Assembly: GCA_028711705.1 (NCBI GenBank)
Contig: JAQTRS010000002.1
Location: 9,617-73,616 of the forward strand
DNA from: Candidatus Moraniibacteriota bacterium
GTDB taxonomy: Bacteria > Patescibacteriota > Minisyncoccia > Moranbacterales > UBA1568
Length of the DNA stretch: 64,000 bases
Reading direction: 5' to 3'
Shown here: positions 45,693-49,346 of the stretch, piece after piece
How positions within the stretch are numbered: the first letter of the stretch is position 1
How the letters are laid out: each line of letters starts with the position of its first letter
Notes under the pieces: model-generated
What the model was told of the DNA's origin: nothing
What the model saw: the letters and a program-made list of their open reading frames with translations, nothing else
Databases searched by the model: none
Program-made: the position numbers and the translations under genes

Positions 45693-48600
45693 TCACATAA
45701 GCTCGAATTTCTCTTTCAGGATGATGATTTCGTCGCGCAAAATGGCGGCTGTCTCGAAATCCAGCTCCTTCACGGCGAGTTTCATCTGCTTTTCCTTGAG
45801 CTTGATCAGCTTCTCTGGATTCTTCACAAACACCTGCTCGTCGATCAGGATATTCGCCGACACCGCCTTCTGATGCTCGCTCTCGAAGGCCTCGGTGATA
45901 TCGTGGATTTTCTTGCTGATGGTCTGAGGGGTGATGCCATGCGCCTCATTATACGCGATCTGGATGGCACGCCGACGATCGGTCTCGCTTATCGCACGCT
46001 CCAAAGACCCGGTCATCGTGTCCGCATAGACATTGACCCGGCCGAAAACATTGCGCGCCGCCCGCCCGATGATCTGGATGAGCGACGTTTCCGATCGCAA
46101 AAATCCCTCCTTATCCGCATCCAAGATGCCGATGAAAGTCACCTCCGGCAGATCCAATCCTTCCCGCAACAGATTCACGCCCACCAAGCAATCGAATTCC
46201 CCTTTGCGGAACGACGTGAGTATCCTGATGCGGTCTATCGTTTTGACATCGCTGTGCAGATATTCCGCCTTGACTTTCTGTTCTTTCAAATACGTCGTCA
46301 GATCCTCGGCCATTTTTTTGGTCAAAGTCGTCGCCAGCACCCGCCCGCCTTTTTGTATATCCTTCTTCGCCTCGCCGATAAAATGCCAGATCTGCCCGGG
46401 ATAGTTCCCTGCTTCACGCACGGGCCTCACCGTCACTTCCGGATCGATCAGTCCCGTCGGCCGGATGACCTGCTGCACGACCTGCTCGCTCACCTCGCGC
46501 TCATAGACGCTCGGCGTCGCGGACACATAGATCGTCTGACCGACCCGCTGCTCGAATTCCTCATAACGCATCGGGCGATTATCCAAGGCGCTCGGCAGAC
46601 GGAAACCGAAATCGATCAGCGTTCCCTTGCGGGCCTGATCGCCCGCATACATCGCGCGCAACTGCGGCAGCGTCACGTGCGATTCATCGATCAGTGTCAA
46701 AAAATCCGGCGCGCCATCCGCTTTTTTCGGGAAGTATTCAAGCAGGCTGTCCGGCGCCTCCCCGGGTTTCTTGCCCGAAAAATGCCTCGAGTAATTCTCG
46801 ATACCGCTGCAATAGCCGATTTCCTCTATCATCGCCAGATCATACTGCGTCCGCCGCTTCAGGCGATCCGCTTCCAAAAGCTTTCCCTGTTTATTGAGTT
46901 CCGCAAGCTGCTCCTCCAATTCCGCGCGTATCGTCTGCAGCGCACGTAGTTGCTGTTCCTTGTCCGACACGAAGTGCTTGGCCGGAAACAGGAACATCGA
47001 ATCCATCTCGCCTGTAATCTTCTGCGATACCGGATCGATACCGGTGATGGAGCGCACCTCGCCACCCGAGATATCCAACGAATACATCACGCGCTCCTGC
47101 ACCGGCATGATGTCCACCCGATTGCCCAGGCTGCGAAAAGTTCCAGGCGTCAAATCCGCATTAGTGCGCTCGAAGAAAATCCCGATCAAGCGGCGCAAAA
47201 ATTCCGGACGCAAAATCCGGTCGCCCTTCTTCAGGATAACATGCTCCTTCTGATACTCCTCCGGGCTTCCCAAACCGTAGATGCACGACACCGATGCCAC
47301 GATAATCACATCGCGACGCGTTAGCAGCGACTGGGTCGAGGCATGGCGCAACCGGTCGATCTCCTCGTTGATCTGTGCATCCTTTTCGATATACGTATCC
47401 GTGATGGGCATATATGCCTCTGGTTGATAGTAGTCATAATAGGAGACGAAATAGTGGACGGCATTATCGGGAAAAAATTCCTGAAACTCCTGCGCGAGCT
47501 GGGCCGCCAAGGTCTTGTTATGCGCTATAACGAGGGTCGGCTGTTGGATATTTTGTATGACCTGAGCCATAGTGAAGGTATTGTGAACGAATATCCCTCC
47601 GAACCCAGCTAAAAAAGTTTCATTCTGATCGATTGAAAAATCATACACATATTTTTCGCCTGAAATCATTTCTATTTTTTCGATAGGCGTCCAATATGAG
47701 TTCAAAAGATACGCCTGTTTTTCGATAGCGGAAACATCTGCTAAACCGATTTTTTTCGCTGCTTTAAATAAAGTTTTTATGATTCCCTCGAAACAATTTC
47801 TGGAAGGCAGCCTTTTGCCACTCTCAATCAAACCCATATGAGATCGTCCAGAAATAAAATCTTTCTGCCATAGGCCTAGTTTCTGCCTTATATCCTTAAT
47901 CTGCTTCCCATCGATAGGGATAAGATTGACATTCGTGTTACCAAAAGGTGCTATCGTCGCCCTCAAAGAGTCATTTTTTCTTGTAATTGAAAAACCTATA
48001 TTTTCCTGAAAAATCTCCAGATATTCTTTCCCAGAGATAAAGACTTTCCAGCAATCGGTTCGGTTATCCTGATTCGGAATCTTAACACTCCTTTTTTTCA
48101 TCCTTGCCACAATTCCAAAACGCGACAGGGCATAGAGAAGATCCGATGCCAATCCCTTGCTTACCGTTACACAGGTGATAGCGCCGCTATCGATCCCGCC
48201 ATCTCCCGAGAAATACGCCTTCAAAATATGCCTGAGATGGTTATTCGATAACTGCGCCCAGAACGAAGGAAGCCGCTTCATTCGGGAGGTGTTACCGCAC
48301 CAATATTTAAGCCACTCCGTCCATACCGTAGAAGAGACCTGGTAGTCATACGTTCCCGGACGTAAACGATACCGCAACCCAAGATGGACGCAAATGGAAG
48401 AAAAGTCATCAACAGCCTCTCGATCTCCGGATGAGAACATAAAAAAACCGTCCGCTCCATGTCCTTCGGCTATATAGTAACCGATAAGCCTCATCAATTC
48501 CTCGGTAACCGGAATTTCAAGCGTATGTTCATATCCCCGGCTTACCACCCCAAAAACAGCCTGTTGAGAGAGCATCGGGACTGCTGTAATAATTTTTTTA

Positions 48601-49346
48601 TACAGCGAAAAAGACACTCTCTCTTGATCATGCAGAATCCGATAGGCTTTTTGATATGGCAAAATCGACTGCAATAGCTCTTTATGCTCCGCCCAAGCAG
48701 AGGCAAAATTCGGCATACGAACAAACAATTTCAAACCAACATCCGCAACATCATCCGCTAAAGATATCGACTGTAACGTTTTTCTCGGTTCATCCAAACT
48801 CAATGGGACAGGTAAAAAATCGCCCACTCGTAATTCATCGGTTGAACAAAGAACTGTTTTCCCTTTGCGCACCACATAAAAATTGTGATCCTGAGTCACT
48901 GTTACTTCCCTTCCACAGCTTGTCCTTATGACAGAAAGCTCTTTGGGTGACGCATGTCGTGTGAATTGATTTATAGGCTTCCATGAAACCATTTTTGTCT
49001 GAGAATCGATACTATATGCCTCATACTCTCGGTATCGCGAAGGTAAATCATTCACTTCAAGCAACTCCGTATCATCAATATTTTTTATTTTTCCCGGAAA
49101 GATACTCAGGAGTTCGTCTATAAGACTTCCTATACTTACACATGACACCTTGCCATTCCTTCTTATCAACACAGGCGTGGCACCAGTTACACTTTTCCCT
49201 GTACCCGTGGCTCCCAAGAGGGTCTGTTTTTTCATGCCGCCCCGAATACCCGAAACCAGCGCTTCGATCGCCTGCGGTTGGTCCCCTGCTGGCTGATACG
49301 AACTTCTGAGAGTGAAAGGGTTGCTGCGGGGTGTTGACATTTCCAT
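45693..49346 (-). CDS. uvrB: Excinuclease ABC subunit B (UvrB) precursor interrupted by an intein (extein about 679 aa, intein 538 aa)
   Basis: Extein: …LLGATGTGK | … | TFTMAQVIQNIQQPTLVIAHNKTLAAQL…, with UvrB helicase motifs and the C-terminal UvrB/UvrC interaction helix. The intein starts with Ser and ends in …FVHN before Thr. Confidence 0.85.
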   Translation of the reverse strand: MEMSTPRSNPFTLRSSYQPAGDQPQAIEALVSGIRGGMKKQTLLGATGTGKSVTGATPVLIRRNGKVSCVSIGSLIDELLSIFPGKIKNIDDTELLEVNDLPSRYREYEAYSIDSQTKMVSWKPINQFTRHASPKELSVIRTSCGREVTVTQDHNFYVVRKGKTVLCSTDELRVGDFLPVPLSLDEPRKTLQSISLADDVADVGLKLFVRMPNFASAWAEHKELLQSILPYQKAYRILHDQERVSFSLYKKIITAVPMLSQQAVFGVVSRGYEHTLEIPVTEELMRLIGYYIAEGHGADGFFMFSSGDREAVDDFSSICVHLGLRYRLRPGTYDYQVSSTVWTEWLKYWCGNTSRMKRLPSFWAQLSNNHLRHILKAYFSGDGGIDSGAITCVTVSKGLASDLLYALSRFGIVARMKKRSVKIPNQDNRTDCWKVFISGKEYLEIFQENIGFSITRKNDSLRATIAPFGNTNVNLIPIDGKQIKDIRQKLGLWQKDFISGRSHMGLIESGKRLPSRNCFEGIIKTLFKAAKKIGLADVSAIEKQAYLLNSYWTPIEKIEMISGEKYVYDFSIDQNETFLAGFGGIFVHNTFTMAQVIQNIQQPTLVIAHNKTLAAQLAQEFQEFFPDNAVHYFVSYYDYYQPEAYMPITDTYIEKDAQINEEIDRLRHASTQSLLTRRDVIIVASVSCIYGLGSPEEYQKEHVILKKGDRILRPEFLRRLIGIFFERTNADLTPGTFRSLGNRVDIMPVQERVMYSLDISGGEVRSITGIDPVSQKITGEMDSMFLFPAKHFVSDKEQQLRALQTIRAELEEQLAELNKQGKLLEADRLKRRTQYDLAMIEEIGYCSGIENYSRHFSGKKPGEAPDSLLEYFPKKADGAPDFLTLIDESHVTLPQLRAMYAGDQARKGTLIDFGFRLPSALDNRPMRYEEFEQRVGQTIYVSATPSVYEREVSEQVVQQVIRPTGLIDPEVTVRPVREAGNYPGQIWHFIGEAKKDIQKGGRVLATTLTKKMAEDLTTYLKEQKVKAEYLHSDVKTIDRIRILTSFRKGEFDCLVGVNLLREGLDLPEVTFIGILDADKEGFLRSETSLIQIIGRAARNVFGRVNVYADTMTGSLERAISETDRRRAIQIAYNEAHGITPQTISKKIHDITEAFESEHQKAVSANILIDEQVFVKNPEKLIKLKEKQMKLAVKELDFETAAILRDEIIILKEKFELM
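47580..49193 (-). mobile_element. Intein (S52…N589 of the precursor) with an embedded LAGLIDADG homing-endonuclease domain, inserted in the UvrB Walker-A P-loop
   Basis: Block A SVTGATPVL. LAGLIDADG-like motifs LIGYYIAEGHG and LKAYFSGDGGI. Block G FVHN then T. Boundaries were verified codon by codon on the DNA. Confidence 0.8.

Follow-up and report, generated by a model that had tools for sequence, protein, structure and literature searches.

A 64,000-nucleotide stretch of the genome of a Candidatus Moraniibacteriota bacterium (assembly GCA_028711705.1, contig JAQTRS010000002.1, positions 9,617 to 73,616 of the forward strand; hereafter the window) contains a uvrB gene that is split within its P-loop by a long in-frame insert. 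We hold with high confidence that this insert is a canonical class-1 intein carrying a nested two-motif LAGLIDADG homing endonuclease, placed between the Lys and the Thr of the Walker-A motif. The evidence comes from the architecture and catalytic residues of the insert, its predicted fold, an empty site in a close relative, a base composition foreign to its surroundings, and the patchy occurrence of inteins at this one site across phyla and domains.

The intein in the Walker-A motif of UvrB

The initial annotation had described the gene as a UvrB precursor with a LAGLIDADG intein of 538 amino acids (aa), and recomputation returned identical boundaries (47580-49193, within the open reading frame (ORF) 45693-49346). 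The parts of the gene are as follows, a slash marking the insertion point here and below.

45693..49346, minus strand: uvrB precursor coding sequence, a single uninterrupted ORF of 1217 aa plus stop, 3654 nt open throughout
49194..49346, minus strand: N-extein, 51 aa, whose last residues are the start of Walker A (...LLGATGTGK)
47580..49193, minus strand: intein, 538 aa / 1614 bp, from Ser1 to His537-Asn538, precursor aa 52-589
45693..47579, minus strand: C-extein of 628 aa and a stop codon, whose first residue, Thr+1, is the Walker-A Thr (TFTMAQVIQ...)

The precursor product runs ...KKQTLLGATGTGK, then SVTGATPVLIRR..., and 538 residues further on ...FLAGFGGIFVHN, then TFTMAQVIQNIQQPTLVIAHNK..., the junctions in translation being ...LLGATGTGK/SVTGATPV...GGIFVHN/TFTMAQVIQ... 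The insertion falls between the Lys and the Thr of the GxGKT P-loop (GATGTGK/T), in agreement with the Walker-A position first assigned to it. At the DNA level (...GGGAAA/AGTGTA...CACAAT/ACCTTC...) it is in frame and at codon boundaries, and since neither a repeated residue nor repeated DNA was found at the two ends of the insert, the junction is unambiguous.

The identity of the host protein as UvrB, also claimed initially, is borne out by the spliced 679-aa extein, for which the NCBIfam equivalog profile of UvrB, NF003673, gives 963 bits (cut-off 743) and TIGR00631 949 bits (cut-off 750). The two extein halves align to NF003673 as a single collinear stretch, extein residues 11-674 covering profile positions 2-652 of 653, and the Pfam domains ResIII, UvrB_inter, Helicase_C, UvrB and UVR are all found above their cut-offs in the product. 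Its best named relatives, at about 73% identity, belong to Candidatus Moranbacteria/Moraniibacteriota and other Patescibacteria, which points to a host in or close to this group of the candidate phyla radiation. The insert does lengthen the protein, although the doubling of gene length initially proposed is in fact a 1.8-fold increase (1217 vs 679 aa). The accompanying concern that an automated annotator could mistake the gene for a fusion or a pseudogene appears overstated: the unspliced precursor still reaches 938 bits against NF003673, in two stretches and well above the cut-off of 743, so a pipeline based on hidden Markov models would most likely name it UvrB.

Within the insert, Pfam detects Intein_splicing (E 2.7e-18) and LAGLIDADG_3 (E 3e-16, intein aa 321-400). 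Of the TIGRFAM models for the two intein ends, intein_Nterm (TIGR01445) scores 39.8 bits where 24.5 is the cut-off, and intein_Cterm (TIGR01443) 29.9 bits where it is 15.6. These matches lie far beyond chance. The following elements could be placed in order.

49152..49193, minus strand: block A, SVTGATPVLIRRNG, intein aa 1-14, with Ser1 as the first nucleophile; TIGR01445 above cut-off
48873..48914, minus strand: block B, GREVTVTQDHNFYV, intein aa 94-107, with the TxxH motif T100-Q-D-H103
48456..48497, minus strand: first LAGLIDADG motif, LMRLIGYYIAEGHG, intein aa 233-246, with the putative catalytic Glu243
48195..48236, minus strand: second LAGLIDADG motif, LRHILKAYFSGDGG, intein aa 320-333, with the putative catalytic Asp331
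47700..47948, minus strand: accessory domain separating the endonuclease from HINT-C, intein aa 416-498, similar to XRE-type helix-turn-helix (HTH) domains, placed by alignment
47604..47654, minus strand: block F, KYVYDFSIDQNETFLAG, intein aa 514-530, including Asp518
47580..47600, minus strand: block G, GGIFVHN, intein aa 532-538, with the penultimate His537 and the terminal Asn538; TIGR01443 above cut-off

Block G is directly followed by Thr+1, the Walker-A threonine. The insert thus has the features of a class-1 intein, namely Ser1, a block-B TxxH motif, a C-terminal His-Asn followed by Thr+1, and the restoration of a complete UvrB when it is removed; all of the terminal splicing residues listed in the initial annotation are there. 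It also has those of a two-motif LAGLIDADG endonuclease, in that the cores of the motifs (LIGYYIAE243GHG and ILKAYFSGD331GG) each form a helix ending in an acidic residue, Glu243 in the first and Asp331 in the second.

Sequence and structure comparisons converge on the same architecture. A phmmer search of Protein Data Bank (PDB) sequences with the intein gave as best match PI-PkoII/PI-TkoII (2cw7, E 1.8e-26), with an alignment in three collinear pieces corresponding to HINT-N, the endonuclease and HINT-C. A model of the intein made with AlphaFold2 from a six-sequence alignment reached a mean predicted local distance difference test score (pLDDT) of 81.8 and a predicted template modelling score (pTM) of 0.79. 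Searching the PDB with this model in Foldseek again placed 2cw7 at the top (E 9e-27, TM 0.67 in both directions), followed by the TliVMA intein (7qss), PI-PfuI (1dq3), PhoVMA and PI-SceI (1vde), with mini-inteins and the free-standing endonucleases I-DmoI/I-Tsp061I lower down. In the model, the endonuclease is predicted to have the alpha-beta-beta-alpha-beta-beta-alpha fold and to be nested in the HINT domain. Searched on its own against NCBIfam, the intein matches NF011491 best, at 166 bits, over intein aa 6-538 and profile positions 81-543.

An empty site, a foreign composition and a scattered family

The 13 UvrB proteins nearest to the extein in a collection of 5.8 billion proteins (80-93% identity) are only 669-708 aa long and thus have no intein. 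The closest of them, P0011, which is 93% identical to the spliced extein by BLASTP and 91.9% by global alignment, is encoded on a contig of NCBI assembly GCA_964624415.1 (L001 below) whose synteny with the window extends to either side of uvrB. On the N-extein side, window 49311-49195 aligns to L001 10033-10149, and on the C-extein side window 47583-44450 aligns to L001 10147-13288. These alignments abut in L001, so that the 1614 bp of the intein are exactly the extra DNA of the window, and the uninterrupted allele that the initial annotation had proposed looking for in related genomes does exist. At the insertion point the L001 gene reads without interruption GGTACGGGCAAG/ACCTTTACTATG, the intein-less DNA (about 10120-10180) being ...ACGGGTACGGGCAAG/ACCTTTACTATGGCG..., and 46/60 nucleotides around the junction are identical between the two genomes. 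Comparison of the extein with L001 gave a nonsynonymous divergence (dN) of 0.057 and a synonymous divergence (dS) of about 1.4, and the resulting dN/dS of 0.04 indicates strong purifying selection on the extein.

The intein differs sharply from its host gene in composition, with a GC content of 0.42 overall and 0.41 at third codon positions (GC3), vs 0.55 and 0.70 in the extein. GC3 in the long ORFs of the window is mostly 0.54-0.72, and the sole ORF below the intein is that at 43600-44313. The foreign GC3, together with the fact that none of the 13 nearest UvrB proteins has an intein, argues for a recent horizontal arrival.

Relatives of the intein were sought by scanning an intein alignment against one genome per GTDB species, which returned 196 relatives, the best 80 of which were fetched. 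Translation of the flanks placed most of these 80 in UvrB, at the identical GxGK/S...HN/T(F or Y) position, and at least 63 intact, uninterrupted UvrB-site inteins besides the window copy were extracted from other species-level genomes. Their hosts in the candidate phyla radiation (CPR) include Parcubacteria, Portnoy-, Kerfeld-, Magasanik-, Sung-, Nomura-, Staskawicz-, Woese-, Shapiro-, Peri- and Saccharibacteria. Further bacterial hosts include Chloroflexota, Acidobacteriota, Armatimonadota, Planctomycetales, Rhodothermales, Aquificales, Trueperaceae, Methylomirabilota, Omnitrophota, Clostridia and gammaproteobacterial metagenome-assembled genomes (MAGs), and archaeal hosts include Bathyarchaeia, Micrarchaeota, Promethearchaeota (Asgard) and unclassified archaea. 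As judged from sequence, this distribution shows the UvrB Walker-A loop to be a recurrent intein homing site in both bacteria and archaea, represented in at least 64 species-level genomes.

The functional residues are strongly conserved in the alignment of 64 sequences. Ser1 is present in 64/64, and Thr100, His103, Asp518, His537 and Asn538 are likewise 100% conserved, as are the motif glycines Gly238, Gly244 and Gly332. Within block F, Val516 reaches 100% and Tyr517 98%; in the endonuclease, the corresponding values are 95% for Glu243, 93% for Asp331 and 98% for Lys306. At the +1 position, every extracted UvrB intein but one has Thr, the exception having Ser, and lengths are mostly 510-560 aa. 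Similarity of the inteins to the window copy is only weakly correlated with similarity of their hosts (Spearman rho 0.38); the Bathyarchaeia intein and extein are 45% and 54% identical to those of the window, and in one Saccharibacteria genome the values are 34% and 74%. This weak correlation is the pattern that a horizontally moving homing element would give.

The nearest relative among the GTDB species genomes is 47-48% identical to the window intein. Scanning JGI metagenome contigs for close relatives with the single intein as query returned no relative, and an exhaustive HMMER search of 1.84 billion cluster representatives yielded 99 proteins at E <=1e-30 with a best identity of just 47%, from which it follows that the donor lineage is unsampled. 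Word-indexed protein searches, made with the intein alone and with the intein alignment, found five UvrB-intein fragments, and an exact look-up of the 1217-aa precursor in the protein collection found it absent. Viral contigs and cultured phages contained inteins just 23-30% identical to this one, in portal, terminase, ribonucleotide reductase and nucleotidyltransferase genes, and gave no sign of a phage vector. A tblastn search of the window with the intein revealed no second related intein.

Some members depart from the common form or host. The UvrB intein of a Promethearchaeota contig (L048, JBHLPJ010000010.1, 72-2165) measures 698 aa, about 150 aa over the family length, and may carry an extra inserted domain. 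On an uncultured Candidatus Saccharibacteria contig (L064, CAYLVJ010000018.1, 2292-4274), a 26%-identical intein occupies the P-loop of another ATPase, VirB4/TraC-like by its look (…VVFGTSGSGK/S…HN/SF…), at the same Walker-A Lys/Ser or Thr position; this case hints that the intein lineage may have moved between P-loops of unrelated ATPases. The hosts of distant relatives (23-29% identity) were assigned only by eye, from flanking motifs. They comprise Top6B-like GHKL ATPases (…KLLYGSKFH…Q/S; L071-L075, L077, L078 and L080) from Halobacteriales, Nanoarchaeia, Woesearchaeota and a Candidatus Eisenbacteria MAG, as well as PolII DP2 (…HAAIRRD/C; L073, L079), XPD-like helicases (…HN/SEGID; L066, L067) and CPSF-like beta-CASP proteins (L068, L081).

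Splicing, homing and alternative readings

Class-1 inteins splice through an N-O acyl shift, transesterification, Asn cyclisation and an O-N shift. Following this pathway, uvrB would be translated as a 1217-aa precursor which, because its P-loop is split, should be unable to bind ATP. Ser1, assisted by Thr100 and His103 of block B, would undergo the N-O acyl shift; the hydroxyl of Thr+1 would then attack the ester to give a branched intermediate; and cyclisation of Asn538, aided by His537 and block F, would release the intein. A final O-N shift would create the native Lys-Thr bond and restore the GKT P-loop, so that the products would be a functional 679-aa UvrB and a free 538-aa intein. The endonuclease, with Glu243 and Asp331 as its likely metal ligands and the HTH-type accessory domain helping, would recognise and cut the P-loop DNA of an intein-less uvrB, and recombinational repair from the intein-bearing allele would copy the intein into the cut gene. 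That the intein splices and that it cuts DNA, as well as the precise sequence it would recognise, we infer from established intein chemistry. Because the +1 residue is the essential Walker-A Thr and the DNA to be cut codes for an invariant motif, such a site should harbour the element safely and escape from it only slowly, an argument that has also been made for the P-loop inteins of DnaB, MCM and RFC (PMC4760082).

The window copy is unusual in its accessory domain. In PI-TkoII, PI-PfuI and the VMA inteins, such domains separate the endonuclease from HINT-C, and those of TliVMA and PI-TkoII resemble the HTH of the 434 repressor and influence the cleavage site (Beyer et al., PMC8966425). About 58/63 of the UvrB-intein relatives have a full-length XRE-type HTH module between the endonuclease and block F, and in the protein P0002 the homologous segment matches Pfam HTH_19 (5e-11) and HTH_3 (7e-10). 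The corresponding segment of the window copy has no Pfam HTH match at E values up to 0.01. When aa 416-498 were modelled alone (pLDDT 84.9), the top PDB matches were all of the XRE family (PrgX, C.Esp1396I, C.BclI, PlcR and lambda repressor), although weak (E 0.04-0.25, TM about 0.5-0.58), and helix 2 of the domain is a single turn in the models. Four relatives (L017, L023, L027 and L051) have lost the module entirely.

Several observations weigh against an intein that is active in all its parts. Four residues are missing from the window copy where helix 2 ends and in the turn (LGLWQKDFIS, the gap, then GRSHMGLIESGKRLPS), a gap shared by 0/63 relatives, and in the NTNVD motif that precedes this gap the copy has Asn423 where Asp is 92% conserved. 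Homing of the window intein may thereby be weakened even with splicing intact. The last ~15 residues of the AlphaFold2 model, moreover, have pLDDT <50, and no relative above 47-48% identity was found that could point to a donor or to recent selection on the intein itself. The accessory segment suggests a possible early erosion of the DNA-targeting part, and because of this the homing activity is less certain than splicing.

Carried further, these observations lead to the alternative that the intein splices while its homing is decaying or already lost, the element being kept since precise loss is rare and UvrB stays functional, which would correspond to a late stage of the homing cycle. This is possible, but we consider it doubtful. 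The four-residue deletion in helix 2 is unique, the D423N change affects a well-conserved motif, the segment has no recognisable Pfam HTH where P0002 has a clear one, and the four relatives without an accessory domain indicate that decay of the module does occur within the UvrB intein family. However, Glu243, Asp331 and Lys306 are all kept, and the foreign GC3 (0.41 vs 0.70) and the 13 intein-less nearest UvrB proteins point to a recent invasion and hence to a recently active endonuclease. Accessory domains, furthermore, modulate cleavage specificity and are not strictly needed for cleavage (PMC8966425).

A regulatory role for the insert is far less probable. The intein would then act as a conditional splicing switch, holding UvrB off until a DNA or damage signal, sensed through the HTH, triggered splicing. 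The P-loop position would guarantee an inactive precursor, a DNA-binding-type domain is present in most members of the family, and conditional splicing is documented for inteins of other repair and replication proteins, RadA (PMC5790916) and DnaB (PMC6195587, PMC7360933). Yet nothing in the sequence is specific to regulation, the Ser1 and Thr+1 chemistry offers no redox-sensitive catalytic cysteines, the closest relatives live without the intein, and the composition indicates a recent selfish arrival. The HTH accessory domains are, besides, already accounted for by recognition of the target DNA (PMC8966425). That some UvrB inteins, possibly including the window copy with its remodelled HTH, keep nucleotide-excision repair off until a cue, and so are not purely selfish, is accordingly a speculation to which we give very little weight.

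It is more improbable still that the insert is dead, unable to splice, and has turned uvrB into a cryptic pseudogene. The oxygen nucleophiles used by Ser1/Thr+1 inteins are less reactive, which could be taken in favour of such a reading, but every splicing residue is intact and matches a position that is 100% conserved in the family, the 3654-nt frame is open throughout, and intact precursors with the same chemistry occur in 63 other lineages. The extein, with its dN/dS of 0.04 and its full-length UvrB profile match at 963 bits, likewise speaks against inactivation. The window also holds both partners, uvrA and uvrC, in intact form and, with a second uvrA-like gene present as well, a working UvrB is expected.

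4304-7132, minus strand: uvrA
8681-9928, minus strand: uvrC
11407-13956, minus strand: second uvrA-like gene

An assembly or binning artefact, in which a chimeric contig joined foreign DNA to uvrB, would account for the sharp GC difference between intein and flanks but is scarcely credible, since the insert is in frame, at codon boundaries and at the same K/T position as in 63 independent assemblies of other organisms, L001 synteny continues on both flanks, and chimeric joining would not be expected to produce exact intein termini. For the reasons set out above, domain fusion, pseudogene and assembly chimera were all rejected.

Neighbouring genes and comparison with known systems

Apart from the intein, the window and L001 differ in several places. 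Just downstream of uvrB, window 41101-44450 has no counterpart in L001, where 13288 runs straight to 13445, and it looks like a second low-GC insertion. Upstream of uvrB, window 49350-53340 and L001 8026-10033 show no alignment at the DNA level; several ORFs without Pfam matches lie here. In L001 no more than about 600 bp lies between a penicillin-binding protein (PBP) gene and the uvrA-like, uvrC and uvrA genes that come next, whereas in the window about 24 kb (about 14000-38270) separates the PBP gene (38273-40540) from the uvrA-like gene, a stretch that represents either a large insertion or a rearrangement. Finally, an ORF in the interval between uvrA and uvrC, with a low-complexity, acidic/proline-rich middle section, has no counterpart among the called genes of the fetched part of L001. 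Rfam and tRNA scans found no RNA genes in the window. The features concerned are listed below.

41373-43514, minus strand: M23-peptidase/CARDB protein, 713 aa, within 41101-44450
43600-44313, minus strand: 237-aa ORF with no Pfam match, within 41101-44450; GC 0.38 and GC3 0.34, the window minimum
50778-52196, plus strand: PP2C/SpoIIE-like phosphatase, within 49350-53340
35005-37161: GH81 glycosidase, within the 24-kb stretch
31401-32930: family-2 glycosyltransferase, within the 24-kb stretch
7335-8588, minus strand: 417-aa ORF between uvrA and uvrC, with two C-terminal DUF4379 treble-clef zinc-finger repeats

No description of a UvrB intein was found in the literature searched. UvrB is not listed in the tables of the top-15 bacterial/archaeal intein hosts of a 2015-16 survey, where UvrD, RecG and others are (PMC4760082). 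A Desulfonema paper that mentions both UvrB and an intein was set aside, as its inteins are those of GyrB and DnaE and not of UvrB. To our knowledge, the old InBase registry had no UvrB entry. The window intein is textbook in kind, and only its host site, which is undescribed in the searched literature, is mildly new. For annotation, the gene should be recorded as an intein-containing uvrB, neither a fusion nor a pseudogene, and the organism counted as having a complete UvrABC. The understanding of how inteins function is unchanged by the UvrB intein, but the combination of Ser1/Thr+1 chemistry without cysteine dependence and a modular HTH could interest those who engineer inteins and homing endonucleases.

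Among characterised inteins, the closest by both sequence and fold is PI-TkoII (PI-PkoII, 2cw7), the Pol-2 intein of the Thermococcus kodakarensis DNA polymerase. The two are of nearly equal length (537 vs 538 aa) and share the order HINT-N, two-motif LAGLIDADG endonuclease, accessory domain and HINT-C, the accessory domain of PI-TkoII being described as HTH-like (PMC8966425). They differ in that identity is only ~20% and that PI-TkoII resides in an archaeal family-B DNA polymerase of a hyperthermophilic archaeon rather than in the UvrB of a CPR bacterium. The TliVMA intein (7qss), the second fold match (E 8.5e-21), similarly combines HINT, endonuclease and accessory domain within an ATPase, with a 434-repressor-like HTH that affects where the DNA is cut (PMC8966425), but it is 16% identical and its host is the A subunit of a V-type ATPase. 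Pfam HTH_3/HTH_19 profiles pick out the HTH of the UvrB family from sequence; helix 2 of the window copy is truncated.

In terms of location, the closest parallels are the inteins at DnaB site b, MCM site a and RFC-S site a, which also lie inside the Walker-A P-loop of an ATPase of DNA metabolism (PMC4760082), but these are not the closest sequence relatives of the UvrB intein. A related lineage of full-length LAGLIDADG inteins is represented by the intein of archaeal RNA polymerase subunit A'' (in NF011491), which differs in host and site, the match covering the intein part only (166 bits vs a cut-off of 783). Further counterparts are the UvrB inteins of other MAGs, for example those assigned to Parcubacteria (L002), Portnoybacteria (L003), Kerfeldbacteria (L014) and Bathyarchaeia (L005), which share both the site and the domain order of the window copy, but are at most 47-48% identical to it, and none of which comes from the window's own UvrB clade.

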